64,000 nucleotides of DNA from Candidatus Shapirobacteria bacterium (GTDB taxonomy: Bacteria > Patescibacteriota > Microgenomatia > UBA12405). The notes beneath the pieces were generated by a model. The model had not been told where the DNA came from. It ran no database searches and was given only the letters and a program-made list of their open reading frames with translations. Shown piece after piece: positions 1-26,575 of the stretch. The DNA lies in NCBI GenBank assembly GCA_041659325.1, contig JBAZYN010000002.1, positions 513 to 64,512 on the forward strand. Reading direction: 5' to 3'. Position 1 is the stretch's first letter. Each line of letters begins with the position of its first letter. Made by a program: the position numbers and the translations under genes.

Positions 1-99
1 TGAATACAGGAATTTTAAAGTACCAGATGAATCGACTTGATTCATAGTAGGGATATTATATAGTAGATTGCTAAAAAATACAGTAGGGAAAAGTTGGAA

Positions 100-534
100 T
101 TAGCCCTGATATCTTTTTAAATAGACAAGATGTTTTTTGGTAACGTACCCGTGAGGGAGGAGCTGTTTTAGAGAGGTGATTTTATGGACCCCATGAATAT
201 CGGAAATCACTACGTCAATATCTTTGTTGCTGATTTGATAGAACTGGGTTAAATATTGTAAACAAGCTCCGCAGGGATGGACCTGTTTAAAGTCCACGAC
301 ACAAATAGCTTTAATTTGATATTTACCATGAATAACGGCATGGTCGATTGCCGATCTTTCGGCACAAACTCCTAAACCGGTTATAACCGACTCGATAAGA
401 CAGCCCCCGAAGTATTCCCCATCGACCGTAAGTACCGAGGCACCAATTTTATGTTTTGATCTGACAGTGAATGATTTCGGACGCGATTCGGTTGCTACTT
501 TTATAAGAGTTGATATTTCGTCTTTTGTAAGCAC
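100..534 (-). CDS. cdd: cytidine deaminase
   Basis: Zinc-binding deaminase motifs CAERSAI and HPCGACLQ. A GTG at 534 gives ~144 aa whose N-terminus aligns with short bacterial Cdd proteins, and it lies 8 nt downstream of the recF stop. The ORF track extends to a TTG at 636 that overlaps recF. Confidence 0.8.
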   Translation of the reverse strand: MLTKDEISTLIKVATESRPKSFTVRSKHKIGASVLTVDGEYFGGCLIESVITGLGVCAERSAIDHAVIHGKYQIKAICVVDFKQVHPCGACLQYLTQFYQISNKDIDVVISDIHGVHKITSLKQLLPHGYVTKKHLVYLKRYQG

Positions 535-541
535 TGGATTA

Positions 542-1603
542 TTATAACTGAATAATTTTGGCGGAAGGAAGGATAGAGACTGATTCCGGCTCGGAAGAAG
601 TGAATATTGTTTGATACCTTTGGCAAATTTTGCCAATGAGCTTTTGGTGGTTTTCGTCTAATTCCGAAAAGATATCGTCCAGAAGTAATATGGGTGATTC
701 CTGGTATTTGGTTTCAAGATAGTCTATTTGTCCTAGTCTAACGGTAAATGTGGCTAATCTTTGCTGGCCACGGCTGCCCCAACTGGCTAAATTCTTGTCG
801 GCAGAGTGAAAAACCGAATTATCAAAACTAAAATCATCGCGGTGAAGTCCGGATTGAGTGTAGCCACACTCAAGCTCCCGAGAATAATTTTGATCGATTT
901 TTTCTTGAGTAAGAAAAGAGGGGTAATAGTTTATGGAAATTGTGTTTATTTCCAGGTCGGGGTGATTTTGAAAAAAATTGTTGAGATGTTTTATGAAAGA
1001 TAGTCTAAAATCGTGGACTATTTTGTCATTTTTTGTCAGGGATTGATCCCAATAATAGAGTTCGGATTTATTATTTTTGCCACATCTGATTAGGTCTAAT
1101 AATTCGTTACGGTGTTTTAGGGCCCGATTGTATTGCGATAAGGCGGAGGAATAGCGCCATTCTGATTGCATAAATATTTCATCAAGGAAGTCGCGTCGAC
1201 GGCCGGGGGAGCCGGCTACTAGCCGAATATCGTCGGGGTGAAAAATTACAGTTTTAATCTGGCCGATAAACTCCTTCCGAAGTTTTTCGGCCCTATTGAT
1301 TAATAACTTACGGGTAACGGCAGTTTTGGCGGGATCGTTTGTTAGCTGAATCTCCAGTTCGCTGAGTTCATTGTTTGTAGACAGTTTACCCCTAACCGAG
1401 GAATACGACGAATCCCACATAATAAGTTTTGAGAGGGAGGTTGAGCGAAAACTCTTGCCGTGAGATAGGAGATAAATTGATTCCAGGATATTGGTTTTTC
1501 CGGAACCATTCGGACCAATAATGAGATTGGTTTTTGGATCGAATTCAAAAAGTGTTTTTTGATGAGACCGGAAATTTTCCAGGAGTAACTTGGTGAGAAA
1601 CAT
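542..1603 (-). CDS. recF: DNA replication and repair protein RecF
   Basis: N-terminal Walker A IIGPNGSGKTNILESI, C-terminal LLLDDIFSELD motif, and 353 aa length are typical of RecF. Confidence 0.9.
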   Translation of the reverse strand: MFLTKLLLENFRSHQKTLFEFDPKTNLIIGPNGSGKTNILESIYLLSHGKSFRSTSLSKLIMWDSSYSSVRGKLSTNNELSELEIQLTNDPAKTAVTRKLLINRAEKLRKEFIGQIKTVIFHPDDIRLVAGSPGRRRDFLDEIFMQSEWRYSSALSQYNRALKHRNELLDLIRCGKNNKSELYYWDQSLTKNDKIVHDFRLSFIKHLNNFFQNHPDLEINTISINYYPSFLTQEKIDQNYSRELECGYTQSGLHRDDFSFDNSVFHSADKNLASWGSRGQQRLATFTVRLGQIDYLETKYQESPILLLDDIFSELDENHQKLIGKICQRYQTIFTSSEPESVSILPSAKIIQL

Positions 1604-1671
1604 TAAGGCAATTATACCTGCTTCGATGTTGTGGATGGTTTACATAACTTTGATTGTTCTATAATTACGAC

Positions 1672-2625
1672 ATGATAGACGTATTAAAAACAACAAAATA
1701 TGTAGCTGATAATTCAAAGTTGGTAAAAATCTCTACAAGAGCAATTGAAAAGCTGGTAAATAGTGTGCAGGAGAGTGAATTGGATTCGTTTGACTTGGGA
1801 TATTTTGGCTATAATTGGCCTTTTGATCTTCAGATGGAATTGGTTTTTATATTTAACGCTGTAAATTTTTGTTATTGGTCGGGAAAAGGCGAACAAAAAT
1901 GGACGGTTGAAATTGGAGGCAAGAAATTAGATGGGGCAATTGCTCTATTTAAATGCTTGGAGGAGGAGGCTAATAGAAATGACTCGTTTTTCCGACCGGA
2001 AACTCTGGCCAATTTAAATGAAAATGATTTAAAAAGAATTCTCAGGGGAAATGCAGAGATTCCATTGTTTGATGAGAGATTGGAATGTTTAAGAGAGTTG
2101 GGGCAAGTAACAAAAGACAGGTATGGCGACTATTTGAAAATTATTGAAAATAGCGAACATGACGCTATGAAACTAGTAGAAACAATAACTATTAATTTTC
2201 CGAGATTTAACGATGTTTCTGAATATAGTGGCAAAAGCATAGGGTTTTACAAGCGGGCACAACTGAATGTCAATATGATAAACAGTATCTTGGTATCTGT
2301 AGGACAAGCCCCAATGTTAAACATTGATAAGTTGACGGCATTTGCGGATTATAAAGTGCCACAGATACTTAGAGGGATGGGCATTGTCAAGTATTCAAAT
2401 ACATTGTCGAAAAAAATAGATGATTACGAGTTAATTCCCGTAAATTCAAGAGAAGAAGTCGAAATAAGGGCAAATACAGTTTGGGCGGTTGAGCTCATCA
2501 GAGAAGAATTAAGTAAGACGTTCCCCGTGACATCGCCTGAAGTTGACACTGTTCTTTGGACGAGATCGCAGAAAAAGGAACCCGGCGAAAAACCATATCA
2601 CCGGACACTAACAACGGCTTACTAG
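1672..2625 (+). CDS. QNG1-like queuosine salvage protein (DUF2419; queuosine 5'-phosphate N-glycosylase/hydrolase family)
   Basis: Several blocks align with human QNG1/C9orf64: AVNFCYWSGKGEQKW, FYKRAQL, AFADYKVPQIL, EVEIRANTVWAVELIR. The track start at 1654 is TTG; the ATG at 1672 is more likely. Confidence 0.8.
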   Translation: MIDVLKTTKYVADNSKLVKISTRAIEKLVNSVQESELDSFDLGYFGYNWPFDLQMELVFIFNAVNFCYWSGKGEQKWTVEIGGKKLDGAIALFKCLEEEANRNDSFFRPETLANLNENDLKRILRGNAEIPLFDERLECLRELGQVTKDRYGDYLKIIENSEHDAMKLVETITINFPRFNDVSEYSGKSIGFYKRAQLNVNMINSILVSVGQAPMLNIDKLTAFADYKVPQILRGMGIVKYSNTLSKKIDDYELIPVNSREEVEIRANTVWAVELIREELSKTFPVTSPEVDTVLWTRSQKKEPGEKPYHRTLTTAY

Positions 2626-2802
2626 AATTTTGGTCCGGAGAGTATCGGTAGCGTGGAACGAATTATTTGCTAACCTAATTTCCATCTACGAAACTCTTAA
2701 GCCTATTATACCTGAAGAAAAATTAGCTTTGGATTATTCCTATTAGGGATTACCAGTATAGTAATAGAACTATAATATAAAGAAGTGTTAATAGGACTGT
2801 TA

Positions 2803-3111
2803 TCAATAATTTTCAAATACGTCATACCAAGGGTAGGTAAGCCGAAGCATTCTTAAGCGCCGGAGAGGTCTAAGTGGTCGGAGAGGTCTAAGTGGTCGGA
2901 GAGGTCTAAGTGGTCTTAGCTTGAAAGGTTCCCCATAACGTTTTACAATCCTGTCATCTGAACTAACGTAACCAATAAATGACATGTCATTTGCACTGTA
3001 AACTTCATTACCGTTCAAGATAAAACCAATCCAATTGCATTCGGTATCAAACAGATAGTTTCCGTTAATAAAAGCAATATAGTTACCTGATGTATTAAAG
3101 ATATATCTCAT
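2803..3111 (-). CDS. hypothetical beta-rich protein with N-terminal Gly/Asn/Tyr-rich repeats and an internal RPLRPL tandem repeat
   Basis: ORF of 102 aa with periodic G-N-Y/I-x-F motifs. It is co-oriented with the downstream ORF and overlaps it by 4 nt. Confidence 0.4.
   Translation of the reverse strand: MRYIFNTSGNYIAFINGNYLFDTECNWIGFILNGNEVYSANDMSFIGYVSSDDRIVKRYGEPFKLRPLRPLRPLRPLRPLRPLRRLRMLRLTYPWYDVFENY
2861..2914. repeat. perfect 18-bp tandem repeat x3 (cggagaggtctaagtggt), in frame within the ORF 2803..3111
   Basis: Three identical head-to-tail copies are visible directly. They encode (RPL)n on the minus strand. Confidence 0.95.
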
Positions 3112-3563
3112 TGTCTATCTCTTAATAAAGTAACCTGTGAATACAGATACAAAATACCCCCTATTACCATCATTACAATAGCACCCACAACCTGATAATC
3201 AGTCTTACCAATCGGAACACTGTGTTCAGAAGTTATAAAGTTAATTCCTATACCTATTAATATGGTTGCAAATAAATTTAAGACAACCGAATTGAGTGCT
3301 TTGTATTTATTAAGTTGGTAGTCGTTAGCGTATGTTTTTAAAGTCTCGTTCTCTGTTTCCAGTTGAGTAATTTTTGATTCGCAGTTTTTGGTATAAGTTA
3401 GAATTGTACTAGCTAATGGTCTATTGCCAGTTAAATCTTTAGCCTTAATCGTTCCTAAACTGGTTGGGTCAATACCTAAAGGACCGTTACTATTAGCCAA
3501 GGGAGGTGTGTTTGTTGTTTGAGGAGGAGTTACGGGGGGAATAATTGTTTTAGGTTTAGCCAT
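3108..3563 (-). CDS. hypothetical membrane protein (Pro/Thr-rich N-terminus, coiled-coil, two C-terminal TM helices)
   Basis: The two C-terminal hydrophobic helices and central coiled-coil suggest a holin- or phage-like architecture. No recognisable family. Confidence 0.4.
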   Translation of the reverse strand: MAKPKTIIPPVTPPQTTNTPPLANSNGPLGIDPTSLGTIKAKDLTGNRPLASTILTYTKNCESKITQLETENETLKTYANDYQLNKYKALNSVVLNLFATILIGIGINFITSEHSVPIGKTDYQVVGAIVMMVIGGILYLYSQVTLLRDRQ

Positions 3564-3686
3564 TGTAATTATTTTACTCCATAATGGATATTTTTCTGGT
3601 TAGTAGGACTAATAGCATAAAGTATTAATAGCTATTAATACTCTATGGATTACGTAGGATTTGAGTTTTTGTGATATAAATGGCGT

Positions 3687-3869
3687 ATGGATGACGTATC
3701 AGGTTTTTTATCTTTACTTTTCATATTGGCTTTGTATTTACTGCCAACCATTATTGCTTTTTCAAAGCGGAAAAAGAATAAAGTAGCCATTTTCTTAACT
3801 AACTTTTTATTGGGCTGGACGGTATTAGGCTGGATAATTTCTCTAATCTGGTCGGTAACAAACGATTAG
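3687..3869 (+). CDS. superinfection immunity protein (T4 Imm-like, two-TM)
   Basis: YLLPTIIAFSKRKKN...FLTNFLLGWTVLGWIISLIWSV matches the Imm superinfection-immunity family signature (LPxIIA, LGWT, GWIxxLIW). 60 aa. Confidence 0.7.
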   Translation: MDDVSGFLSLLFILALYLLPTIIAFSKRKKNKVAIFLTNFLLGWTVLGWIISLIWSVTND

Positions 3870-3958
3870 AGCTGGACTACTAAATTAAGTAGATGAGGGG
3901 AAATTGGTAGATAATGTATATAATCAGAACTAGAGTTAAGGGTTAAAAAAATAATAAT

Positions 3959-5881
3959 ATGGACACCTATCAGGTATTACAAAAAATCTTTAAAAACCCC
4001 GAACAGGACCTTTTCATGTTTGATGACCTTTCCCAAATAAATATATATGAAAAAGGTGAAGGGATGTTTTATGTAAAAGCAATTTCAAAACTAGATGAAG
4101 AGAAATTGGTCTACAACGCCAAGACTGGAAAATCCGCACCTGAAGAAATTGTTAGACAACTATATTTAGTGCAACTTACAAAGCATTATAAATACCCTAA
4201 AAGTCTTATTGAGCTTGAGAAGCAAGTAAATTTTGGACGTGAGCAAAAACGAGCAGATATAGTGGTTTACAGGCCTGACGGCATTACCCCGAAAATAATA
4301 ATTGAGGTAAAAGCTCCAAGTGAGGACAATGATGTCCAGCAGTTAAAATCATATTTGAATGCTGAAGGGGCACCCGTAGGGGTTGCGTTGAATGGTAAAA
4401 CACGCCTTATCCTATACAGACCATATCCAAAAGATTTTGATGACACACTTGACGATATTCCTGCCTCTGATGAAGGGATAGAAGATGTTTTAGCAAAACG
4501 AAAAACTCTTAAAGATTTGAGAGATATTGAGCTAAAAGAAGTAATTGAAGAATTGCAAGAGCTGGTATTGGCTAACTCCGGAGCTGATGTATTTGACGAG
4601 ATTTTTAAACTGATATACGCAAAACTATATGATGAAAAAGAAGCTTTAACACGACCCAATCAAGAACTGTTTTTTAGAAAAAGCCCGACAGGAAACCCAT
4701 TAGAAACAAAGCGAATTATTGATGACCTTTTTGAAGGAGCTAAGAATGAATGGCCCGATATTTTTTCTAAGGATGACAATATTAAACTACGGCCAGAACA
4801 TCTTTCAGTTTGCATAGGAAGACTTCAGGAGGCAAGACTATTTGGTTCTAACCTCCGTATCATTGATGAAGCATTTGAATATTTACTGCCTGATGTTGCC
4901 AAGGGAAAGAAAGGTCAATACTTTACACCTCGTGTGGTGATTGATATGTGTGTTCAGATGCTTAATCCGCAGAAAAAGGAGTATGTGGTTGATACCGCCT
5001 GTGGGAGTGCAGGCTTCTTGGTCCATACAATGCAGTATGTTTGGAAAAACTTGCCAACCCCTGAAACTCATAGAGAATATGCTAGCAGGTATCTCTTTGG
5101 GATAGATTTTGATGAGAAGTCAACCAAAATTAGCCGAGCAATTATGCTTATTGCAGGAGATGGTAAAAGCCATATCTACAAGACAACCTCACTTGACTCT
5201 AGAGAATGGCCTGAACGGCTTAAAAGCGACCTGAATGACTTAGGTTTGGTCAGACATTTTGATAATTACGATACAGATAGAAACAATAGAGAAACTTTCC
5301 AGCAATTAGGCTTTGATGTACTGCTAGCCAATCCCCCTTTTGCTGGCGAAATAAAAGAAAAGAATTTGTTGGCTCAATATGTTCTAGGTAAGAACAGTAA
5401 AGGAAAACTCCAAAACAAAGTTGAACGCCATTATCTGTTTATTGAGAGGAATCTTGATTTTGTAAAGGCTGGCGGTCGTCTGGCGGTTGTTTTACCGCAA
5501 GGTATTTTTAACAATACGGGTGATGAATACGTCAGAAAATATATAATGCAAAAAGCTCGTATATTGGCGGTTGTAGGCCTGCATGGAAATTCATTTAAAC
5601 CTCATACAGGTACTAAAACGTCAATCATTTTCTTACAAAAATGGCGTGATGATGAGCTAGACCAAGGGGGTAACCCCACTACTCAAGATTACCCGATTTT
5701 CTTTGCCACACAAAAACAGTCATTCAAAGATAATAGTGGTGATTATATTTATGAAAAAGATAATGATGGTCAGTTAATAAAAGATGAGAGTGGTAATCCG
5801 AAATATCTAAGCGACCTTGATGAAATTGCTGATGCTTTTGTTGCTTGGGGTAAGGAGCAAAGTTTAAGTTTCTTTAAATAA
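3959..5881 (+). CDS. hsdM: Type I-like restriction-modification N6-adenine DNA methyltransferase (HsdM) with N-terminal HSDR_N-like PD-(D/E)xK domain
   Basis: MTase motifs: GQYFTPRVVIDMCVQML, motif I VVDTACGSAGFL, motif IV LLANPPFAG. The N-terminal ~160 aa match the HSDR_N_2 pattern (RADIVVY...IIIEVKAP...GVALNGKTRLILY). Confidence 0.85.
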   Translation: MDTYQVLQKIFKNPEQDLFMFDDLSQINIYEKGEGMFYVKAISKLDEEKLVYNAKTGKSAPEEIVRQLYLVQLTKHYKYPKSLIELEKQVNFGREQKRADIVVYRPDGITPKIIIEVKAPSEDNDVQQLKSYLNAEGAPVGVALNGKTRLILYRPYPKDFDDTLDDIPASDEGIEDVLAKRKTLKDLRDIELKEVIEELQELVLANSGADVFDEIFKLIYAKLYDEKEALTRPNQELFFRKSPTGNPLETKRIIDDLFEGAKNEWPDIFSKDDNIKLRPEHLSVCIGRLQEARLFGSNLRIIDEAFEYLLPDVAKGKKGQYFTPRVVIDMCVQMLNPQKKEYVVDTACGSAGFLVHTMQYVWKNLPTPETHREYASRYLFGIDFDEKSTKISRAIMLIAGDGKSHIYKTTSLDSREWPERLKSDLNDLGLVRHFDNYDTDRNNRETFQQLGFDVLLANPPFAGEIKEKNLLAQYVLGKNSKGKLQNKVERHYLFIERNLDFVKAGGRLAVVLPQGIFNNTGDEYVRKYIMQKARILAVVGLHGNSFKPHTGTKTSIIFLQKWRDDELDQGGNPTTQDYPIFFATQKQSFKDNSGDYIYEKDNDGQLIKDESGNPKYLSDLDEIADAFVAWGKEQSLSFFK

Positions 5882-5882
5882 T

Positions 5883-7310
5883 ATGGACTGGCAAACTATT
5901 GTCAAAGATAACAATTTAGATGTATCGGTTATAAATAGCTCTGATTTAAACGAGGACATTAGATTTGAAGCTGAATTTTATCGTCCAGAATTTATTCAAA
6001 TTGAAAACTTACTTAAGAAGAGAGGGGTTGAAAGCTATGGTTCTTTTATTAAAAATATACAATGTGGCCCTTTTGGCTCAACAATTCTTTCTGATTCTTA
6101 TGTTGAAAGTGGGGCGTATTTAGCTAGGCCATTTAATTTAAGAAATTGCGTAATTACTGATGATAATAGAGTGTATATTAGTGAAGAAGATTTGAAGAAT
6201 AAAAAGTTAAATGAATATAATAATGGTGATATATTTTTTTCAAGGGTGGGAGAGATAGCTTGTAGTTTAGTTTGGGGATTTGGAGAAAAAGATAAAGTAA
6301 CAATAAGCCCTAATATAATCGCGGTTAAAACTGACACAAAAAAATTGTCTCCATTTTACACAGTAATATTTTTTGAAACAAAATATGGTAAAGGGCAGAT
6401 GCTTAGGGCTCAAATAGTAGTTGCTCAACCGACCATATCTACCCAGCTTATTAAATCTTTGCTTATACCAATACCCTCAATTAATTTACAAAATTCTATA
6501 GAAAAAATATACAGAGCTTATGTTGTGGCATTAAAAAAATCTGCAGATAATTATAGGGAAGCGGAGAAGCTATTCCTAAAAGAAATTGGCCTTTTTGATT
6601 ATGAAGTAGGTGGAAAAAATATCTCTATCCGAAACTTTATAGATTGTTTAATTGAAGACCGTTTTGATGCCGAATATTGGCAACCAAAATATGACGAAAT
6701 GTTTTGTAAGATACGAGAAAAACCTTATAAGAAAATTGGTGATATTGCGAATGTTGAGACTGGTCAATATATAAGCGAATATGTTGAGAAAGGAGCTGAT
6801 ACCAAATCTTTTATCAGGGGTACGGATGTTTCTCAATACGAGATTGATACTAATAGCTTGCTGTTTGTCCGCGTATCTGACCAAAAGAAAAAACATGTTG
6901 CCAAAAAAGATGATGTAGTAGTCGCCAGAGTAGGTTCTATAGGCTTATGCGCACGCATACAAGATAACCTAGTAGGCTCTACCATTAGTGATAATCTTAT
7001 TGCTATTAGAACCAAGGCAGATATTGAGATGAGCTCATATTATCTTACGGTATATCTTAATAGCTTCGTGGGCCAAGAGTTTATGAAGCGCTTAAGTAGG
7101 GGTAGTGTTCAACAGCGTTTAAATCAAGAAACTCTAAAAGAATTACCTGTCCCGATTCTTGATATTGATATTCAATACAAAATAGAGAAAATGGTAATTG
7201 ATGGTCATTTAGCGAAAAATGAAGCTAAGGACCTTTTTGAAAAAGCTAAGCGAGCAGTAGAAATATTTATTGAACAAGATGAAGAAAAGGCCTTGAGTTT
7301 TATTCAATAA
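5883..7310 (+). CDS. hsdS: Type I restriction-modification specificity subunit (HsdS), two target-recognition domains
   Basis: 475 aa with duplicated TRD architecture and conserved spacer/C-terminal helices (LPVPILDIDIQYKIEKMV...). Starts 2 nt after the hsdM stop. Confidence 0.8.
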   Translation: MDWQTIVKDNNLDVSVINSSDLNEDIRFEAEFYRPEFIQIENLLKKRGVESYGSFIKNIQCGPFGSTILSDSYVESGAYLARPFNLRNCVITDDNRVYISEEDLKNKKLNEYNNGDIFFSRVGEIACSLVWGFGEKDKVTISPNIIAVKTDTKKLSPFYTVIFFETKYGKGQMLRAQIVVAQPTISTQLIKSLLIPIPSINLQNSIEKIYRAYVVALKKSADNYREAEKLFLKEIGLFDYEVGGKNISIRNFIDCLIEDRFDAEYWQPKYDEMFCKIREKPYKKIGDIANVETGQYISEYVEKGADTKSFIRGTDVSQYEIDTNSLLFVRVSDQKKKHVAKKDDVVVARVGSIGLCARIQDNLVGSTISDNLIAIRTKADIEMSSYYLTVYLNSFVGQEFMKRLSRGSVQQRLNQETLKELPVPILDIDIQYKIEKMVIDGHLAKNEAKDLFEKAKRAVEIFIEQDEEKALSFIQ

Positions 7311-7360
7311 ATCACCAAAAAAGTTGGATTTCTGAAAAAACATGACTTTCCCCAATATAC

Positions 7361-7410
7361 TTGACACGCAAGATACTGGTTGGTAATATATGAATTAGAC
7401 AGTGGTGTCT
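7361..7410 (+). promoter_or_regulatory. sigma70-like promoter (TTGACA-17 nt-TAATAT) followed by inverted repeat AGACA-gtgg-TGTCT upstream of the MerR-like gene
   Basis: Consensus -35 and -10 hexamers with 17-nt spacing at 7361-7389. Palindrome at 7397-7410, then ATG at 7416. Confidence 0.4.
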
Positions 7411-7415
7411 AATTT

Positions 7416-8000
7416 ATGCTTTTTATTACTGATAATCTTCTAGCCAAGGCTTCGGAAACAATCAAGAAATGTAATCTTGGTGATATTTTCAATCAAAAAA
7501 AATACACGATAGCTGATACTCCCCTGTCATACAGGCAAGCTAATACTTTAGACAAGGACAAGTTACTAAATGATAATAGGACGGGTGGTAAAGGTTGGAG
7601 AAAATTTAGCTTTAAAGAATTGGTTTATATTGATATTGTCTTGGACCTTAAGAAATTTGGGGTTAAACATGAGCAATTAAAACAATTATGGCAATCATTC
7701 TTTAAAGAGCCTGATGGTTTATTGGTCCCTAGTTTAGTACCAAATAGAGGAGAATCGGAAATAGCAATTTCTAGCGTGTTTGGTGGTGTTGAAATGGTTC
7801 TTTGTATAGATAGTGATGGAGAAATATTATATTTTGACCCTCAATTTTCTACTAAGTATAGTCAAAGCTCCAAGCCACTGATACGGGTTAGTTTAAATGT
7901 GGTAATTAATAAAATTATTAAACTAATAATTAAAGAGGAATTACCGGTGGAGGATTCAATCAAAAAATTAATAGTTGAGTACAAACTGATAGAAAAATAA
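7416..8000 (+). CDS. MerR-family-like HTH regulator fused to an uncharacterised C-terminal domain
   Basis: YTIADTPLSYRQANTLDKDKLL...GWRKFSFKELVYIDIVLDLKKFGVKHEQLKQL follows the MerR HTH and dimerisation-helix pattern. Confidence 0.45.
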   Translation: MLFITDNLLAKASETIKKCNLGDIFNQKKYTIADTPLSYRQANTLDKDKLLNDNRTGGKGWRKFSFKELVYIDIVLDLKKFGVKHEQLKQLWQSFFKEPDGLLVPSLVPNRGESEIAISSVFGGVEMVLCIDSDGEILYFDPQFSTKYSQSSKPLIRVSLNVVINKIIKLIIKEELPVEDSIKKLIVEYKLIEK

Positions 8001-8220
8001 TATGAATCCCAAAAAAATATTAAATATTGAAAATTTACATTCAATAATTAATGGACATTTTACGCCACTATTTAAGCTCAGTTTACAAATTTTAGTCTAA
8101 AAATAATAAGTAAGAATAAATAAATAATTATCAATTTAGGCCAAGATTGTAACTCCTTTACTTAGGCAAGGCCGGCTGACAGCTACTAGTTCTTTTTGAA
8201 AGAATTGAGAAGGAACCAAT

Positions 8221-8239
8221 CAACACATAATTTGTGTTG
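8221..8239. promoter_or_regulatory. perfect palindrome CAACACA-taatt-TGTGTTG upstream of small ORF and recombinase
   Basis: 7-bp arms with a 5-nt spacer, seen directly. It lies in a 230-bp AT-rich intergenic region. Confidence 0.3.
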
Positions 8240-8287
8240 GTTGGCGAGTCATTTCTTAACCACACACAGATAGTGAGGTTTAAGAAT

Positions 8288-8458
8288 ATGACAGTTAATA
8301 GAGCAAGAAAAATACTAGGAAATATGGCAAAAGACTACTCTGACGAGCAGGTCATGAACTTGGTTAAGCAAGTCAAAGCTCTAACTGATATTTGTGCAGA
8401 AAATATAAATAAAAGGATGAAAAACGAAGGAGTTAGTTTTTTATATAAAGTAAAATAA
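8288..8458 (+). CDS. small hypothetical protein immediately upstream of serine recombinase (possible directionality or regulatory factor)
   Basis: 56 aa from an internal ATG (the track ORF is 8234..8458). Its stop is 5 nt before the recombinase start. Confidence 0.3.
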   Translation: MTVNRARKILGNMAKDYSDEQVMNLVKQVKALTDICAENINKRMKNEGVSFLYKVK

Positions 8459-8463
8459 AAGAA

Positions 8464-10212
8464 ATGATAAGAGCAATTATATTGGCAAGAGCATCTGACC
8501 CAAAACAAATTATCATGGGTGATACGTTGGACGACCAACTTTATCTCTGTAAGAAGCTCATAGTTGCAAGAGGGTGGGATTTAGCTGAAGTGTTTCCCTG
8601 TGTAGAAAGTGGCCGAAAGAAGGAAAAAGAATACTTTTGGAAAATCTATAAATATTGCGAAGAGAGACAAAATACTCCAAAAAAGATTGACTACTTGGTT
8701 GTGAAAAATTTGAGTAGATTTACGAGAGGTGGCGGTGCCGAGTATCTTTATCTTAAAAAACTTTTAGCTGAAGTTGGAGTAAAGGTTCAGGATACACTTG
8801 GAACCGTAGGAGATGAAATAAATACTTTGGGTGACTTAGGATTTAAATACGAGTGGAGCATTCAATCCCCCACAGAGGCCATTGAAGTGAGTCAAGCCGA
8901 GGGAAATTTGCAATACGTGAGAAATCAACTAACACAGATGATTAGTGGATGTATTCGCTATATCCAAAAAGGATATTGGAATGGTCCGGCACCTTTTGGG
9001 TTAAAAAACAAAAAGGTGGAAACTCAAGAAGATGGAATAAGGAACATTCTTGCTGAAAATACTATTGAAAGTCATTTTGTTAAGCGAATTTATGAGATGA
9101 GAGCTAGTGGAGTATCTGACAAGGAAATTGCTGAAAAAATAAATTTGATGGGATTTAAGACTAGGTTAATGGCAAAAAGAGACCCAATAACTAGGATGAA
9201 GATTGGAACAAGAGGGGGAGTTCCGCTTACCGTTAAGAAAATCCAAGAGTGGGTAGTTAATCCTATTTATTGCGGAGTCATTGTTGCTTTGTGGACAAAG
9301 TATCAACCTATCAAGGCAGTTATGTTTGACGGATTGGTTGATATAGAGACTTTCAACTCTGCTAATAAAGGTAAAATTTTTATATCAAAGAATGTTGATG
9401 GTACTTATTTGATTAAACGAAATATTAAATGGGCGAATATAAATCAACCCGATAAAAGAATGAGGTATAACCCGTTTTACCCGTACAAAGGCATTCTACT
9501 GTGCCCTGTATGCAAAAAAGAGGTCAAGGCGAGTGCTTCAACTGGCCATTTGGGAACTAAATATCCTGCTTATCACTGTGACAGGAATCACCATAAAAGA
9601 TGGCACGAAAAGCGAGAGGATGTTCATAAAATAGTTGAGAACTTTACAGAGAACCTAAAATTTTCTGAAGAATTTACAAAACTGTTTCAAGAAGTGTTTG
9701 TGGAGTCTTGGCAGGAAAAAAGACAAGTTGCCATGGTTGACAGTGAAAGGGCCGAAAACTACGTTTTAGAGCTTGTAGTGAAGCGAAAAAGCATATTGGA
9801 GACAATCAAAACAACTGATAGCTTGCCTGTCAAGAAGGCATTAGAAGAAGAATTTGAGGCAATTGATAGTGAAATAGAAAAAGCAAGAAGCGGGAGAAAT
9901 GGGGTGGAGAGAAAAGAGGTGGATATTAAGCATATTTTGAAATATGCGGGATATTTAGTGGAACACCCAAAGGAACTACTGATAGATACGGACAACATGA
10001 TAAATCAGAGGTATCTTTTCGGATTGGTATTTGACACCCTTCCAACAGTTGATGAATTAGTTAGTGGAACCGCCAAATTACAGCCAATATTCCAATTAAA
10101 GGGAAATGAAAATATGTCAAAAAGAGACTTAGTCCAGCGGGCAGGAGTCGAACCTGCTCAAAATGGTTTTACAGACCATCACCTAACCGTTCGGTCACCG
10201 CTGGTTATTTAA
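8464..10212 (+). CDS. large serine recombinase (phage-type integrase)
   Basis: Resolvase catalytic N-terminus IILARASDPKQ, recombinase domain, and zinc-ribbon CPVCKK...YHCDRNHH. The C-terminal 24 codons are antisense to tRNA-Tyr. Confidence 0.85.
   Translation: MIRAIILARASDPKQIIMGDTLDDQLYLCKKLIVARGWDLAEVFPCVESGRKKEKEYFWKIYKYCEERQNTPKKIDYLVVKNLSRFTRGGGAEYLYLKKLLAEVGVKVQDTLGTVGDEINTLGDLGFKYEWSIQSPTEAIEVSQAEGNLQYVRNQLTQMISGCIRYIQKGYWNGPAPFGLKNKKVETQEDGIRNILAENTIESHFVKRIYEMRASGVSDKEIAEKINLMGFKTRLMAKRDPITRMKIGTRGGVPLTVKKIQEWVVNPIYCGVIVALWTKYQPIKAVMFDGLVDIETFNSANKGKIFISKNVDGTYLIKRNIKWANINQPDKRMRYNPFYPYKGILLCPVCKKEVKASASTGHLGTKYPAYHCDRNHHKRWHEKREDVHKIVENFTENLKFSEEFTKLFQEVFVESWQEKRQVAMVDSERAENYVLELVVKRKSILETIKTTDSLPVKKALEEEFEAIDSEIEKARSGRNGVERKEVDIKHILKYAGYLVEHPKELLIDTDNMINQRYLFGLVFDTLPTVDELVSGTAKLQPIFQLKGNENMSKRDLVQRAGVEPAQNGFTDHHLTVRSPLVI
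10133..10204 (-). tRNA. tRNA-Tyr(GTA), class I (short variable arm), C1-G72
   Basis: Manual fold: acceptor CCAGCGG/CCGCTGG, anticodon stem ATGGT/ACCAT, loop CTGTAAA (anticodon GTA), T-arm GCAGG-TTCGACT-CCTGC, discriminator A73. D-stem is only 3 bp. Confidence 0.55.
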
Positions 10213-10588
10213 CTAAATATTTTTTATATTTTGGCCCCAGAACTAAATTGTATTTTGCAACAAGTTCCAGGCTAGGAATAAAATATTTTTCGAGATTTTG
10301 GGTAACGACAAAAAGATAGTCACAGTTTGCCGTGTCAAATTTTTTAATTTTTCCAACACTGGTTCTATTGCCACCTTTTACCGACAAATTGACTTCGTAA
10401 CTTTTTCTTTTATAGCTACAAGTTTTAACCTGGACTCTCCCCAAATGGCTTCCGTCATCAATGATTAAATCATAGTCTTGACTATCGGTGAGAGGGATAC
10501 CAACTGTGTATCCTACGCTTGTAAAATAGCCAATAGCTACACCCAATCCCATATCTCCTTGTTTTTTAGAGTTTTTAAAGAGCCCCAT
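10205..10588 (-). CDS. small PD-(D/E)xK / Mrr-cat-like restriction-endonuclease-fold protein
   Basis: GDMGLGVAIGYF...DYDLIIDDGSHLGRVQVKT resembles the Mrr catalytic core (D...Q-x-K). 127 aa, abutting the tRNA-Tyr 5' end. Confidence 0.4.
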   Translation of the reverse strand: MGLFKNSKKQGDMGLGVAIGYFTSVGYTVGIPLTDSQDYDLIIDDGSHLGRVQVKTCSYKRKSYEVNLSVKGGNRTSVGKIKKFDTANCDYLFVVTQNLEKYFIPSLELVAKYNLVLGPKYKKYLVK

Positions 10589-10669
10589 TAACAGTATGAT
10601 ACACCGTTAATGACCACTGGTAAAATGTAGATGATTATAGCAGATTTTGTTAACTGGTAGAATAATAAT

Positions 10670-11440
10670 ATGCGTAACATCAGAATAATTTCTTGGAATG
10701 TGGCCGGAATGAGGGCGGCGATAAAAAAGGGATTGTGGGATTTTGTAAAAACAGACAACGCAGAAATATATTGTCTTCAAGAGGTGAAAGCATATCCTTC
10801 GCAAGTGCCAATGATAGAGTGCCCCGGGGATTATATCCCCTATTGGAACCCGGCTAAAAAAGCCGGCTATTCCGGGGTAATGACATTGACGAAGATGGAA
10901 CCAAAAAAAGTAATTGTGGGAGACAGGGATAGCGATTGGGACGACGAAGGAAGGGTTTTGATAACTAAATTTGATGAATTTACCCTGCTAAATGTTTATT
11001 TTCCGAACGGCAAAAAGGATAAAGGAAGACTGCAATATAAAATGGATTTTTATGAAAATTTTTTGAAATATATAATCGAATTGAGAGAGCGGGGTGAAAA
11101 GGTTATATTTTGCGGTGACGTAAATACCGCCCATAATGAGATTGATTTGGCGAGACCAAAAGAAAACGAGTTGGTTTCCGGATTTTTGGAGATTGAGAGA
11201 AAATGGATGGATAAATTAGTAAAAAATGGTTTTGTTGATACCTACAGAATATTTAATAAGGACAGAATCGGATATAGCTGGTGGAGTCAAAGGGGCGGGG
11301 CCAGAAAAAGAAACGTCGGGTGGAGGATTGACTATTTCTTTGTCTCAGAAGAACTAAAAGATAATGTAGTTGGCGCTTTTATATTGCCGGAGGTGGTGGG
11401 GAGTGATCATTGTCCAGTTGGGATGGAGTATCGGATTTGA
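10670..11440 (+). CDS. xth: exodeoxyribonuclease III (AP endonuclease)
   Basis: IISWNVAG, CLQEVK, GDVNTAHNEIDL, WRIDYFFVS, GSDHCPV are ExoIII/APE family motifs. Confidence 0.9.
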   Translation: MRNIRIISWNVAGMRAAIKKGLWDFVKTDNAEIYCLQEVKAYPSQVPMIECPGDYIPYWNPAKKAGYSGVMTLTKMEPKKVIVGDRDSDWDDEGRVLITKFDEFTLLNVYFPNGKKDKGRLQYKMDFYENFLKYIIELRERGEKVIFCGDVNTAHNEIDLARPKENELVSGFLEIERKWMDKLVKNGFVDTYRIFNKDRIGYSWWSQRGGARKRNVGWRIDYFFVSEELKDNVVGAFILPEVVGSDHCPVGMEYRI

Positions 11441-12212
11441 GCATAAGTGAAGTACCAATACCGATAACCAAAGAATTGAAGAAAGGAAATGAGAGGTGGA
11501 TATTTTGTTTCAAAATGTAATTTAAAAGTAGGCCAATTATTACCCAATCCACGAACAAGATGATGGTGTAGATAAAAAGAGAGGTACCGTAGATTTCTAA
11601 TTTTTTATCGTTTGGGTGAAGTTTGAATATCTTTATAATGGTTTTGGCGACCCAAGAGTACCAGAGGTTTTGGCTGAGGAAAATGATAAGCAATAGTGGA
11701 GTGGCCATGAAGGGAACAAAATAATATAAATTACGTCCGCTTCGGAGGATTAAGGGCAGATACTGATTAACAAAATTAACAATTTGGTTTTTGTCCAAAT
11801 TGTAATTGACGGTGGCCGGAATTGTTTCTACCTTGTAGGTGTTTTCCTTGTCAGGATAGACGTAATAGTTGGTCCCGACCAGAGCAATCGGTTTGCAAAG
11901 GGAGGAGTAGGTTTCGTCAGTAAGAGATAGAACTCTAGGGTCCCGGTCGCCAGTAAAAACAATTCCCGATTGGCTTTTGTCGTCTAAAACAAGGCAATAT
12001 GGGGTTTCACGATTGACAGACACTTGGCCGCTTTTTACGGAGATAATCAGGTCGTCGGGGTAACGGGAAACCAGATTCGTGTCTACCCAGGTTGAAGCGT
12101 TAGACAAAATATCATTTAGGGTAGAAAGGGGCAAAATGAGATAGAACCAGCCAATGATGGATGACAAGAGAAGAAAGATAGTGAGGTAAAGGACCGATTT
12201 TTGGGTTTTCAT
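11379..12212 (-). CDS. hypothetical polytopic membrane protein (possibly DUF1189-like)
   Basis: N-terminal TM, extracytoplasmic domain, and four C-terminal TM helices. Its 3' end overlaps xth convergently. Confidence 0.4.
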   Translation of the reverse strand: MKTQKSVLYLTIFLLLSSIIGWFYLILPLSTLNDILSNASTWVDTNLVSRYPDDLIISVKSGQVSVNRETPYCLVLDDKSQSGIVFTGDRDPRVLSLTDETYSSLCKPIALVGTNYYVYPDKENTYKVETIPATVNYNLDKNQIVNFVNQYLPLILRSGRNLYYFVPFMATPLLLIIFLSQNLWYSWVAKTIIKIFKLHPNDKKLEIYGTSLFIYTIILFVDWVIIGLLLNYILKQNIHLSFPFFNSLVIGIGTSLMLKSDTPSQLDNDHSPPPPAI

Positions 12213-12231: not shown

Positions 12232-12930
12232 TTATGGTTTGATAATGAAATTCTTGGTCCCCTCTTTTTTTAACCAAAGATTGTTGGCTTTCCAATTTGG
12301 ATCGTATTTCCCGAAGGTCTCCCAATAGTGACGGCTGTGATTTTTAACCTCTAAGTGAATTAACTCATGCAGGAGAATATGGCGAAATTTATCTTTTGGA
12401 AAGAAAATAATTTGCCAGTTGAAATTTAAGTTGTTTCTGCCCGAGCAGGAACCAAAAAGAGATTTTTGGTTTTTCAAAGAAAGACGGAAATATTTGAAAT
12501 GATATAAGAGACAGAGATTGTCTAATTCCTGCCGGATTAAGGGTAGGGCTAAGCGACGAAGACGGGGTTCAAGGATTTTTTTGAGGTGGGGGCTGGTTTT
12601 TGTTTTGGCATTAATATCAATAATATGTTCATCGGGGAAAATAATAACCGAATCGTGTTTGGCCGGATGAATGTTTAGGGCGTATTTTTGATCGAGGATG
12701 GTAAGGGAAGAAAGACGAAGGAGGGAGCGGGGAGACTTAAATTTGGTTGAATTTTTAATAATCCAATCGGCATGCTGATTGATGAATTTTTTAATAAAGA
12801 AATCGGGGGTAAGATGAGGGCAGGAAACGGTAAAAGAAGAGCGTGATTTTAGGCGCAAGCTAAGGGAACGGACTAGTTTACGAAAGACAGAATATGTAAA
12901 GACTTTATTAGATAGCGTGATCTCGGGCAT
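12232..12930 (-). CDS. YgjP-like metal-dependent hydrolase (DUF45/WLM-type, HExxH)
   Basis: The C-terminal HELIHLEVKNHSRHYWE motif is typical of the DUF45 family. Confidence 0.7.
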   Translation of the reverse strand: MPEITLSNKVFTYSVFRKLVRSLSLRLKSRSSFTVSCPHLTPDFFIKKFINQHADWIIKNSTKFKSPRSLLRLSSLTILDQKYALNIHPAKHDSVIIFPDEHIIDINAKTKTSPHLKKILEPRLRRLALPLIRQELDNLCLLYHFKYFRLSLKNQKSLFGSCSGRNNLNFNWQIIFFPKDKFRHILLHELIHLEVKNHSRHYWETFGKYDPNWKANNLWLKKEGTKNFIIKP

Positions 12931-12995
12931 GGTATATAATTATATTTGATTAGGAATTATATATTTTAAACTGGATTAAAAAAGATTAGTGATAA

Positions 12996-13439
12996 ATGAT
13001 ATATATCGGGGCGGACCATAAAGGGCATAGATTAAAAAGCAGGATTGTGGATTGGATGAGGGGCTCGGGGATTGACTGTACTGATCTGGGGAATAAGGAA
13101 TATGACAGTGGCGATGATTACACAGATATTTCGATATTACTGGCAGAAAAGGTGGTATCTGAGAGGGCGAAAGGGATATTAATTTGCGGCTCGGGGGTGG
13201 GGGTATGTGTGGCGGCAAATAAGGTTAAGGGGGCGAGGGCGGCTTTGGTTACAAACGATAAACAAGCCCGATTGGCCAGAGAAGACGATGACGCCAACAT
13301 ATTATGTCTGTCGACTGACGTGGTGGGCGATGAAGATAATATCGGGATTGTTAAAACTTTTTTAGAGACAACTTTTTCATCTGAAGAAAGACATATCAAA
13401 AGGATTAATAAAATAAAGGAATATGAAAATAAATCTTAG
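12996..13439 (+). CDS. rpiB: ribose-5-phosphate isomerase B
   Basis: RpiB/LacAB pattern IGADHKG...LICGSGVGVCVAANKVKGARAAL. 147 aa. Confidence 0.85.
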   Translation: MIYIGADHKGHRLKSRIVDWMRGSGIDCTDLGNKEYDSGDDYTDISILLAEKVVSERAKGILICGSGVGVCVAANKVKGARAALVTNDKQARLAREDDDANILCLSTDVVGDEDNIGIVKTFLETTFSSEERHIKRINKIKEYENKS

Positions 13440-14475
13440 TCCTGTTTCTGAGGTAGATCCTAACTTAAGAGTCTTGTTGAGAATGGACACTGATCTTCCC
13501 ATGGATGACGGACAGATATTGGACAACAGCAGGTTGGTCAAGACTATCCCCACAATAAAGTTACTCCTGGAGAAGAATTGCAAAATTGTAATTATTGGCC
13601 ATCGAGGACGGCCGGAGGGAAAAATTGCCCCTGAAATGTCTTTGAAACAGATTTATCTGGAACTGATGGATTTACTGGAAAATGACGGACAGAGTTTAGT
13701 TGAGAGTGTGTTTGTAGAAAACTTTACCGATCAGGAAAAAATAAAACAGGCACTGGAAACAAATCAGATAGTTTTTTTGGAAAATCTGAGATTCCACCCC
13801 GGAGAAGAGGCCAATGACCCCCTTTTCCTGAAAGGATTGGTGGATCTATGCTCGGTGTTTGTAAATGATGCCTTTGCGGTAGCCCACAGGAAATGCGCCT
13901 CGATAATGCTTCATAACACCATGCCTGCTTTTTATGGGATAAGTTTTGTTGAGGAGGCAGAAAAAATTGCTAAGTTACTGGATCCGGAACGACCGTTGAC
14001 AATAATTCTGGGGGGGGCAAAAAAAGATAAACTGGATTATTTGCCGGAGTTAGAAAAGATAGCAGACAGAATTTTGATTGGAGGAAAATTACCAAAATTA
14101 ATGCAAAACCCCTCCCCCGCTTCGCGGGACCTCCCCTTGACAGAGGAGGCTAAAGTTGTGGTGGCAAAATTAAGGGAAGACGGATTGGATTTGAGCGATG
14201 AGGATATCGAAAAATTTAAAGAAATAATAAATAGCTCTAACACAGTTATTTGGGCCGGAGCAATGGGTTTTTACGAGTCTCCGGAGAGTAAAAAAGGGAC
14301 CGATGAAATAGCTAGCGCAATTGCGGAGGCAAATGCATATAAGGTAATTGCCGGTGGGGATACATCGGCTTCGGTGAGTAATTTGGGGGTGAGAGAAAAA
14401 ATTGATTATGTGTGTTCCGGGGGCGGGGTAATGCTTGAATTTTTAGCTAAGGGAACTTTACCGGCTTGGGGATAA
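13423..14475 (+). CDS. pgk: phosphoglycerate kinase
   Basis: FLENLRFHPGEE, IILGGAKKDKL, CSGGGVMLEFL. A compact 350-aa form. Confidence 0.9.
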   Translation: MKINLSPVSEVDPNLRVLLRMDTDLPMDDGQILDNSRLVKTIPTIKLLLEKNCKIVIIGHRGRPEGKIAPEMSLKQIYLELMDLLENDGQSLVESVFVENFTDQEKIKQALETNQIVFLENLRFHPGEEANDPLFLKGLVDLCSVFVNDAFAVAHRKCASIMLHNTMPAFYGISFVEEAEKIAKLLDPERPLTIILGGAKKDKLDYLPELEKIADRILIGGKLPKLMQNPSPASRDLPLTEEAKVVVAKLREDGLDLSDEDIEKFKEIINSSNTVIWAGAMGFYESPESKKGTDEIASAIAEANAYKVIAGGDTSASVSNLGVREKIDYVCSGGGVMLEFLAKGTLPAWG

Positions 14476-23826: not shown

Positions 23827-24447
23827 ATGAAACTGAGCCGAATGGCGTATATGGTGGTTTCCCTGCTACTGGGGGTGGTAATCTTGGTGGTATCGATGGC
23901 AAGGGCCGGATTGGAAATTATGGCGGTTGAGGGAAATGAAGAAACCCTACGTAATGATCCGATTAAGTTTGTGATTGTCAACGATGAGTTTGAAAAGGAG
24001 GAATACTTTTATAAGTTACCCGAGGCCGGAATGCTACCGACAAACCCATTTTATGGATTCAAAAAAGTCAGAGATTTTCTTTGGGTAAAATTTAGTTCAG
24101 GAAGTATTAAAAAAGCAAAAGTGCAATTACTGGTGGCCGACAAAAGAATGGCCGAGGCCAAGATACTTTTGGAAGACAATAGAAGCAAAGTCGGTTTGGA
24201 GGCTTCACAAGAAGCCTTTGACGCTTTAAAATTAGCCGAAATATCAATTTCCGGGGTTCAAGAAGAAACTGATGATTCAAGGCAGATGCAATCGCGGATT
24301 TTTAAAGCCGGATTTGCTTATATGCAAATACTGAAAACTTCAGAAAATTCTTTTGAGCTAGATACTAGTAAATATAACCAATTAATTAAAGAGCTGGATG
24401 AGTGGAACCAAAAACAAAAAAGCCAAGAGAAAGAAGACGAAGGGTAA
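23827..24447 (+). CDS. DUF5667-like membrane-anchored helical protein
   Basis: N-terminal TM, LPTNPFYGFKKVRDFLW motif, helical remainder. This family is common in CPR genomes. Confidence 0.5.
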   Translation: MKLSRMAYMVVSLLLGVVILVVSMARAGLEIMAVEGNEETLRNDPIKFVIVNDEFEKEEYFYKLPEAGMLPTNPFYGFKKVRDFLWVKFSSGSIKKAKVQLLVADKRMAEAKILLEDNRSKVGLEASQEAFDALKLAEISISGVQEETDDSRQMQSRIFKAGFAYMQILKTSENSFELDTSKYNQLIKELDEWNQKQKSQEKEDEG

Positions 24448-26575
24448 AAAACTGCGGTTGGCTTTGTTTTTGGGAATATTTTTACTTTTGACAGGGATAG
24501 TAGTTTTGGCTGTGGCGGTGTCTCAGGATTTGCCCAATCCCAAAAAGTTGATGACGTATGAATATCCGGAATCATCTCAAATTTTTGATAATAAGGGAAA
24601 ACTTTTATATGAAATGTATTCTGAAAAAAGAAGGCTGCCGGTAGAACTTGGGGAAGTCCCGGAGAGCCTGAAAAAGGCGACTCTGGCAATCGAGGATTCA
24701 GGTTTTTACAGTCATTTCGGATTTGATCTAAGGGGTATTGTCCGCGGACTATATCGGACAATTGTAGAAAGAAGACTTCAGGGCGGCTCAACTCTAACGC
24801 AGCAGCTAGTCAAAAACGCTCTATTGACTCCGGAAAGGACGGTGTCCCGAAAGATAAAAGAGGCAGTACTGACAGTTGTCACGGAGATTTATTATTCAAA
24901 AGATCAGATTTTAGAAATGTACTTTAACCAAACCCCTTATGGAGGAACATTGTGGGGAGTCCAAGCAGCTTCAAAAGGGATTTTTAATAAAAACGTGGGT
25001 GAATTAACTTTAGCAGAATCGGCACTGATTGCGGGGCTTCCAGGATCACCTTCCAAATACTCCCCTTTTAAAAATCCGGTAGCGGCCATTAACAGACGAA
25101 ATATGGTGTTGGCGAGAATGAGAGAGTTGGAATATATAACAGCGGAGCAGGAGGAACAGTCCAAAAATGAGGAACCCAATTTTTATATTAATAAGGGGAA
25201 TCTGGTGGCGCCTCATTTTGTCTTTTATGTCAGACAGCAATTAATAGATAAATACGGAATTAAAAAGGTGAATGAAGGCGGCCTGAAAATAAAAACAACC
25301 CTTGACTCTGACCTACAAAATTTTGCTGAAACGGCAATAGCGTCTGAAATGGCAAAACTAGTTAGATATAAGGTTTCGAACGGAGCAGCCCTGATTACCG
25401 AACCAAAGAGCGGAAAAATTCTGGCCATGGTAGGGTCAAAGGACTATTTCTCGATAGACATAGATGGCGAATATAATGTGACGACGGCTTTGCGACAACC
25501 CGGGTCGTCGATAAAACCACTTAATTATGCGGTGGCAATAGAAAATGGAAAAATTACGGCGGCATCGGTAATCAATGACGGGCCGACTTGTTTTAATGTG
25601 ACGGGATTGAAATCATACTGTCCGACGAATTACGGGAATAGGTACTTTGGGCTGCAAACGGTACGGAATTCGTTGGCGAGCTCTTTGAATATCGCGGCGG
25701 TAAAAGTATTAAAGCTGAACGGATTGGAAGCATTTGTTGCTTCGGCCTCGGCGATGGGAATATCAACCTTTAACAACGCTTCTGACTTTGGATTGTCACT
25801 AACTTTAGGAGGAGGAGAGGTAAAAATGACCGATATGAACGTGGCATTTGGAGTGTTGGCAAATATGGGGTCGAAACAACCATTAAATCCGATATTGGAA
25901 GTCAGAGACAGAAACGACGAGGTTATCGATGAGTATAAATATGTTCCGGGAGATAGGGTGTTGTCACGAGAGACATCTTTTATTATCCAACAAATTTTGT
26001 CTGATGACGGAGCCAGGGCAATGGTTTTCGGGAGAGGATCAATGTTAAACATTAAAGGTCATTCGGAGGTGGCGGTAAAGACAGGGACAACAAACGATCT
26101 AAGAGATAACTGGACAATCGGATATACTCCCGATGTAGTAGTAACGACATGGGTGGGAAATAATGATAATTCAAAAATGAGCGGAGTGGTTTCCGGAACG
26201 ACCGGGGCGGCACCGATATGGAATAAAATTATGACCTATTATCTACAAGACAGGCCGATAAAAAAGCCGGTGATGCCATCAAATGTAGTGGGTATGTATG
26301 TTTGTAATGTTACGGGGGGTCTGGTACCGGACGAGGGCTGTGACAGTCACTACGAATACTTTAAAAACGAATATAAACCAACCAGCAAGATACCTCTCCG
26401 GGCTAATGTATTGATCGACAAAGATACCGGGAGAGTGGTCAGTGATGGTGATAATAAACCTAATACGGAATGGCAGGATCACGCGGTGATAAAAGATATA
26501 AGCGGAGTAACGGTGTGTCTGGACTGCCCGCTAACCAATCCTGAGGCAGAAAAAGTGGTTACGACAATAAATTAA
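24398..26575 (+). CDS. class A penicillin-binding protein (PBP1A; transglycosylase + transpeptidase)
   Basis: GT51 motifs IEDSGFYSHFG and GGSTLTQQLVKN; TP domain with KILAMVGS and SIKP (SxxK). Confidence 0.9.
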   Translation: MSGTKNKKAKRKKTKGKKLRLALFLGIFLLLTGIVVLAVAVSQDLPNPKKLMTYEYPESSQIFDNKGKLLYEMYSEKRRLPVELGEVPESLKKATLAIEDSGFYSHFGFDLRGIVRGLYRTIVERRLQGGSTLTQQLVKNALLTPERTVSRKIKEAVLTVVTEIYYSKDQILEMYFNQTPYGGTLWGVQAASKGIFNKNVGELTLAESALIAGLPGSPSKYSPFKNPVAAINRRNMVLARMRELEYITAEQEEQSKNEEPNFYINKGNLVAPHFVFYVRQQLIDKYGIKKVNEGGLKIKTTLDSDLQNFAETAIASEMAKLVRYKVSNGAALITEPKSGKILAMVGSKDYFSIDIDGEYNVTTALRQPGSSIKPLNYAVAIENGKITAASVINDGPTCFNVTGLKSYCPTNYGNRYFGLQTVRNSLASSLNIAAVKVLKLNGLEAFVASASAMGISTFNNASDFGLSLTLGGGEVKMTDMNVAFGVLANMGSKQPLNPILEVRDRNDEVIDEYKYVPGDRVLSRETSFIIQQILSDDGARAMVFGRGSMLNIKGHSEVAVKTGTTNDLRDNWTIGYTPDVVVTTWVGNNDNSKMSGVVSGTTGAAPIWNKIMTYYLQDRPIKKPVMPSNVVGMYVCNVTGGLVPDEGCDSHYEYFKNEYKPTSKIPLRANVLIDKDTGRVVSDGDNKPNTEWQDHAVIKDISGVTVCLDCPLTNPEAEKVVTTIN

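Follow-up and report, generated by a model that had tools for sequence, protein, structure and literature searches.

A tRNA-Tyr gene with the archaeal/eukaryal identity set and no long variable arm at a conserved locus of a Shapirobacteria-like bacterium

Tyrosine tRNA (tRNA-Tyr) and tyrosyl-tRNA synthetase (TyrRS) form a textbook domain-specific identity barrier; no cross-reaction takes place between the archaeal/eukaryal pair and the bacterial one, and because of this the M. jannaschii tRNA-Tyr/TyrRS pair has become a workhorse of genetic code expansion. The 64-kb stretch of DNA analyzed here (positions 1-64000; hereafter the window) carries, at 10133..10204 on the minus strand, a tRNA-Tyr gene with the archaeal/eukaryal marks among genes of bacterial content, which raises the question of how it came to be there and which enzyme charges its product. 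A sequence-only reading of the window had offered two explanations, namely the unusual translation apparatus of candidate phyla radiation (CPR) bacteria, or a tRNA that was mobile-element-borne or horizontally acquired. We confirmed that 10133-10204 is a genuine tRNA-Tyr gene with archaeal/eukaryal recognition marks in a bacterial host. Very probably, it is the native, chromosomal and functional tRNA-Tyr(GUA) of a Shapirobacteria-like bacterium, with the archaeal/eukaryal identity set and an archaeal/eukaryal-type TyrRS as its partner. The first explanation was supported by the Shapirobacteria relatives and by published work (PMC5370408); the second was not.

On the minus strand, ARAGORN called a tRNA-Tyr (gta) that spans 10132-10204. 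Rfam RF00005 aligned to 10204->10133 over model positions 1-71 of 71 with 58.9 bits (E = 3.6e-10), well above the gathering score of 29 bits. The RNA is 72 nt long including the discriminator A73 and reads CCAGCGG-UG-ACCG-AACGGUU-AGGU-G-AUGGU-CUGUAAA-ACCAU-UUUGA-GCAGG-UUCGACU-CCUGC-CCGCUGG-A. C1 (10204) pairs with G72 (10134), and A73 follows at 10133; the anticodon GUA (10170..10172) lies in a CUGUAAA loop with A37. The tRNA belongs to class I because its variable loop, UUUGA (10158..10162), is only 5 nt long. The D stem consists of 3 bp and a G13.A22 mismatch and closes a 7-nt loop. These results agree with the fold that the sequence-only reading had drawn by hand (72 nt, class I, GUA, C1:G72, A73), and its coordinates were also right, although it had left the minus strand unstated. 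The CCA tail is not encoded in the window, where a single C follows A73. The tRNA sequence was found once within the window and in 0 of 100 shuffles.

We compared these features with those of the two known identity systems. An authentic, annotated E. coli tRNA-Tyr (100% match) is 85 nt long including its encoded CCA, its first pair is G1:C72 and its variable arm measures 13 nt; this accords with the description of canonical bacterial tRNA-Tyr as class II with G1:C72. The window tRNA has neither G1:C72 nor a long variable arm, and it combines all of C1:G72, A73, GUA and the class I fold of the archaeal/eukaryal set. The sequence-only reading had taken C1:G72 with a short variable arm for the set read by archaeal/eukaryal-type TyrRS, and the literature bears this out: among the identity determinants for this enzyme, C1-G72 and A73 rank highest (Tsunoda et al. 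2007, PMC1934993). Conserved Arg/Lys residues recognize C1 (Arg174/Lys175 in M. jannaschii TyrRS), the variable arm is read solely by the C-terminal domain that bacterial TyrRS carries, and the difference at 1:72 accounts for the lack of cross-reaction between both TyrRS/tRNA systems (PMC1934993). Therefore, a tRNA with C1:G72, A73, GUA and no variable arm should be a substrate for an archaeal/eukaryal-type TyrRS and a poor one for the canonical bacterial TyrRS.

The content of the window is bacterial and includes two class A penicillin-binding proteins, GroEL, IleRS, a glycolytic operon, a RecF-like protein and Xth. When PGK was scanned against one genome per GTDB species, the closest proteins came from Candidatus Shapirobacteria metagenome-assembled genomes (53-66% identity) and one Gottesmanbacteria. 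Other window proteins were 50-81% identical to Shapirobacteria loci with the same gene order, and the conserved order reads RecF ... tRNA-Tyr-(PDDEXK_5)-Xth-YgjP-RpiB-PGK-GAPDH. Because of the PGK relatives, the shared protein identity and the gene order, we identified the host as a Shapirobacteria-like Microgenomates bacterium (CPR/Patescibacteria). Four Shapirobacteria species (loci L001, L002, L003 and L005) have a tRNA-Tyr(GUA) that lies between RecF and Xth as in the window and faces the same way, and in all four it has C1:G72, A73 and a 5-nt variable loop. The tRNA of L001 is 100% identical to that of the window and is followed by an encoded CCA, and no recombinase lies near it.

We aligned the window tRNA with those of the four relatives (five sequences, four distinct). 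In the cloverleaf, 95.2% of cells were paired and 6 of the 21 pairs had changed on both sides. The covariation score of the alignment was reached by 0 of 500 shuffles, and slid controls gave 0-1 double-sided pairs. Compensatory substitutions occur in all four stems, pairing is 100% in three helices, and the first five acceptor pairs, C1:G72 among them, are invariant, as is A73. The tRNA-Tyr is under purifying selection for tRNA function and has been passed on vertically within the clade. Two of the relatives (L002 3554-3625 and L005 4021-4092) have G at both positions 8 and 14, where the window, L001 and L003 keep the near-universal U8 and A14; the 8-14 tertiary pair may have changed here in a covarying manner.

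Enzymes of the type proposed as the partner are known from other CPR genomes. CPR bacteria, Microgenomates included, pair a C1-G72 tRNA-Tyr with an archaea/eukarya-type TyrRS (Mukai et al. 2017, Life 7:8, PMC5370408), and Shapirobacteria are named among the major groups with this enzyme (Fig. 2 legend, PMC5370408). In our searches, the M. jannaschii TyrRS as query gave only Methanococci among the matches listed, the loci kept from a broad-alignment metagenome scan were all methanogen-like, and a viral scan with TyrRS yielded giant-virus TyrRS. A stepping-stone query (L106) led to a eukaryote-like/DPANN/CPR TyrRS family and to the first CPR-labelled enzymes, and the matches listed from the final profile search were dominated by Portnoybacteria and Dojkabacteria clades. 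Proteins labelled Candidatus Portnoybacteria, Dojkabacteria, Parcubacteria and Patescibacteria matched NF006330 (archaeal-type TyrRS) end to end. These CPR-labelled enzymes are ~343 aa long, lack an S4 domain and keep an invariant QRK motif; compared with DPANN-context and fungal TyrRS, they show 45-65% identity. A Portnoybacteria contig of 788,852 bp bears one of them, flanked by bacterial RsgA and the ribosomal protein bL33; therefore, bin contamination is ruled out for that enzyme. Several other candidates were rejected, their gene context being archaeal, eukaryote-like or giant-virus-like, and further ones were ambiguous. Dojkabacteria TyrRS (P0201 and its relatives) has an extra N-terminal tRNA-binding domain (PheT B2-like, PF01588), which was described by Mukai et al. 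(PMC5370408). The TyrRS domain of these proteins shares 55-59% identity with enzymes from contigs that are clearly archaeal (DPANN-like), in which TyrRS adjoins aIF5B.

Several points weigh against an archaeal/eukaryal-type partner in this host. Searches with tblastn and hidden Markov models showed no class Ic synthetase in the window, nor did the relatives' loci of 20 kb contain one. The window holds one tRNA-Tyr and no TyrRS, and the cognate enzyme must therefore lie elsewhere in the genome. None of the TyrRS among the matches listed was labelled Shapirobacteria or lay on a known Shapirobacteria contig, so that the enzyme type for this lineage is taken from a published statement, the figure legend of one paper (PMC5370408). 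A second, canonical tRNA-Tyr may exist elsewhere in the genome, beyond the 64 kb of the window, and the bacterial origin proposed below for the tRNA body rests on few characters. For the type of the cognate TyrRS and for the evolutionary route, we thus drew on the literature and on inference, as distinct from the gene, its features, its conservation, its synteny and the host lineage, which were observed.

The strongest competing explanation is that a bacterial-type TyrRS with relaxed or switched requirements for the acceptor stem and the variable arm charges the tRNA, as in mitochondria. The human mitochondrial TyrRS charges tRNAs with G1-C72 and with C1-G72 alike, and the human mitochondrial tRNA-Tyr has no variable arm although its TyrRS keeps the S4-like domain (PMC5370408). 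Besides this precedent, the host TyrRS was never observed and the tRNA body looks bacterial. However, Shapirobacteria are listed with the archaea/eukarya-type enzyme, archaeal-type TyrRS is widespread in CPR genomes, and the strict invariance of C1:G72 in five diverged sequences suggests that the pair is read. We consider this explanation distinctly unlikely.

If the tRNA is charged by an archaeal/eukaryal-type TyrRS, the following course of events would account for the locus. The enzyme, ~340 aa long and encoded elsewhere in the genome, would lack the C-terminal S4-like domain and would read C1:G72 through the conserved Arg/Lys of the 'QRK' motif. The lineage would have taken it laterally from DPANN-like archaea, and the bacterial TyrRS would have been replaced. 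The tRNA would have co-evolved afterwards, through inversion of the 1:72 pair and loss of a variable arm that was now useless. A bolder version of this proposal holds that an identity takeover has reached its completed end-state in Shapirobacteria: a tRNA-Tyr body of bacterial descent, recognizable by its bacterial D arm and A37, would have become fully archaeal in identity through inversion of 1:72 and deletion of the variable arm, and would have been fixed at one conserved locus. We regard this version as unlikely, and less likely still is a variant in which a remodelled bacterial-type TyrRS, and not the published archaeal type, charges the tRNA. If the end-state version were true, Shapirobacteria and the CPR lineages that keep the variable arm would form a natural stepwise series of a cross-domain identity swap, because these other lineages still keep the arm.

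The DNA next to the tRNA bears on whether the gene arrived with a mobile element. Between RecF and the 3' flank of the tRNA lies a variable region of ~8.4 kb with approximate boundaries (1654..10095), which was delimited by comparison with the relatives. Its genes encode queuosine salvage, a beta-flower protein, an Eco57I-like methylase with an HSDR_N domain, a specificity subunit, a product without assignment and a serine recombinase; the restriction-modification (R-M) pair spans 3959-7310. Homology between the window and L001 breaks off where RecF starts (about 1603-1665) and sets in again ~35 nt 3' of the tRNA. The relatives hold unrelated cargo of 0.85-2.1 kb between RecF and the tRNA (L001 5177-6257, L002 1458-3552, L003 5864-6710, L005 2239-4019), and the contents differ in every genome. 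By this comparison of loci, the 3' flank of the tRNA is an insertion hot spot, with the tRNA itself on the conserved side.

The large serine recombinase is encoded by an open reading frame (ORF) at 8464..10212 on the plus strand, with Pfam Resolvase and Recombinase domains. This ORF crosses the homology breakpoint, reads antisense through the whole tRNA and stops at 10210-10212, so that the tRNA and its native 3' flank, read in antisense, make up its last 26-38 codons. The C-terminal 29 aa of the recombinase match L001 solely across the tRNA, and they do so because these last codons are an antisense reading of the tRNA and flank. The recombinase had no match among phages, and its only PDB match, a marginal one, was with the catalytic domain of a serine recombinase. 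No att-type repeat of the tRNA 3' end was found in the window at the second island border; a 22-nt, 82% AT-rich match inside the queuosine salvage ORF (Q_salvage) was considered as such a repeat and judged to be due to chance.

Another competing proposal is that the tRNA is cargo of this serine-recombinase/R-M island or was recently acquired horizontally with it. The recombinase ORF overlaps the tRNA on the opposite strand, an R-M system is adjacent, the region 3' of the tRNA varies between genomes, and the GC content of 1-12000 is lower than that of the remainder of the window. However, the tRNA occupies the same site in four Shapirobacteria species that have no such island. Homology with L001 spans the tRNA, ~35 nt of 3' flank and all genes on the 5' side, and the identical tRNA of L001 has no recombinase nearby. 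The second island end, as said, bears no repeat of a tRNA fragment. A degenerate pattern of the tRNA had 0 matches in IMG/VR, and blastn of the tRNA against 50,697 phage and 72,556 plasmid records gave no match. Cargo or recent acquisition is thus very improbable, and this suggestion of the sequence-only reading found no support. Least credible of all is a decaying, non-functional tRNA-like relic or an archaeal/bacterial chimeric contig, for which the G13.A22 mismatch of the D stem, the missing CCA and the protein ORF through the tRNA on the other strand might speak, but against which stand the high Rfam score, the compensatory substitutions in all four stems, the presence of G13.A22 in functional E. 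coli tRNA-Tyr, the bacterial genes on both sides and the same synteny in independent assemblies.

Two further observations concern islands of this kind. In the window, an 18-bp unit (CGGAGAGGTCTAAGTGGT) occurs in three perfect tandem copies at 2861-2915, inside a small ORF (2803-3111, minus strand) that has a weak match to beta-flower (PF21784). A Portnoybacteria locus (L134, 10001-13872; JAQTTM010000001.1) has a layout like that of the window: a tRNA-Trp (12368-12441, plus strand) is followed 133 nt on by a convergent large serine recombinase (12574-13872, minus strand), R-M genes lie nearby, and 1.3 kb upstream RsgA and bL33 flank an archaeal-type TyrRS. The recombinases of the window and of the Portnoybacteria locus showed no detectable relationship.

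On the other side of the tRNA, a PD-(D/E)XK (PDDEXK_5) ORF at 10205..10588 on the minus strand, assigned by Pfam, abuts the 5' end of the tRNA with its stop codon. Among the five loci, this ORF occurs in this place only in the window and in L001 (6333-6716, minus strand). In L002, L003 and L005, a TATAAT box starts 20 nt and ends 15 nt upstream of the tRNA. This arrangement suggests that the PDDEXK_5 ORF was inserted between the promoter and the tRNA, and the two are probably co-transcribed. A promoter/terminator scan around the tRNA gave counts not above those of shuffles, and promoter-like sites at 10596-10653 (minus strand) were at chance level. The tRNA would be expressed as a bacterial gene, from the TATAAT upstream in the relatives and behind the small ORF in the window, and its CCA would be added post-transcriptionally in the window.

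Elsewhere in the window, GC skew was positive in every 4-kb bin (0.05-0.32) across 1-64000 and cumulative skew rose monotonically, with no strand switch in 64 kb despite genes on both strands. Two PBP1A-family genes lie in tandem at 24398-28602. A fused DAK2 (YloV-like) and DegV protein of 562 aa is encoded at 46927-48615, and a diphosphomevalonate decarboxylase-like gene (44516-45496) adjoins a tRNA-Cys (44378-44448).

The phenomenon, including its occurrence in the host lineage, was published in 2017 (PMC5370408) and is already known. The present locus adds that the form without a variable arm is fixed at a conserved locus across several Shapirobacteria species, and that the 3' flank of the tRNA serves as a hot spot at which cargo varies, in this case a serine-recombinase/R-M island with an antisense-reading recombinase ORF. 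Bacteria that naturally use the archaeal identity set show that the barrier between the two systems can be crossed by lateral transfer and tRNA co-evolution. New orthogonal pairs might also be drawn from such bacteria, a point that was already made in 2017. Annotators should not mark CPR tRNAs of this kind as contaminants, pseudogenes or cargo of mobile elements.

Finally, we compared the locus with known systems. The system described by Mukai et al. shares with it the Microgenomates bacterial host, C1-G72, A73 and GUA. Many CPR C1-G72 tRNA-Tyr retain the variable arm, and forms that lack it also occur, e.g., in Ca. Roizmanbacteria GW2011_GWC2_34_23 (PMC5370408), whereas here the armless form is the one that five Shapirobacteria-like genomes have fixed at a conserved locus. 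In addition, the pairing with TyrRS was reported there, whereas the present case is known from the tRNA gene. Among tRNA-flanking islands, that of the window is similar in having a recombinase gene directly 3' of the tRNA and variable R-M cargo. It differs in carrying a large serine recombinase instead of a tyrosine integrase, in that neither a duplicate of the tRNA 3' end nor an att repeat was found, and in the recombinase ORF that runs antisense through the whole tRNA.

The archaeal (M. jannaschii) and eukaryotic cytoplasmic tRNA-Tyr are alike to the window tRNA in class I fold, C1:G72, A73 and GUA. The M. jannaschii tRNA-Tyr has the acceptor strand CCGGCGG, similar to CCAGCGG of the window, and a 4-bp GUUC/GAAC D stem with G37, in place of the 3 bp with G13.A22 and A37 of the window. 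Authentic archaeal tRNA-Tyr genes were sought in methanogen loci and none were present there. The window gene differs from the archaeal ones in its bacterial chromosome and in the bacterial-type promoter context seen in its relatives. With E. coli tyrT/tyrU, the window tRNA shares the CUGUAAA anticodon loop, the D arm CCG-A-(G/A)CGG...AGG with G13.A22, and the T loop UUCGA(A/C)U, and the two differ in G1:C72 and a 13-nt variable arm versus C1:G72 and a 5-nt loop. The D arm and the CUGUAAA loop with A37 are thus nearer to E. coli than to M. jannaschii, thin evidence that hints at a tRNA body of bacterial derivation. CPR C1-G72 tRNAs have been viewed as descendants of bacterial tRNA-Tyr (PMC5370408), and the combination of a bacterial-like D arm and anticodon loop with an archaeal-like acceptor fits this view of descent, with the variable arm lost later.

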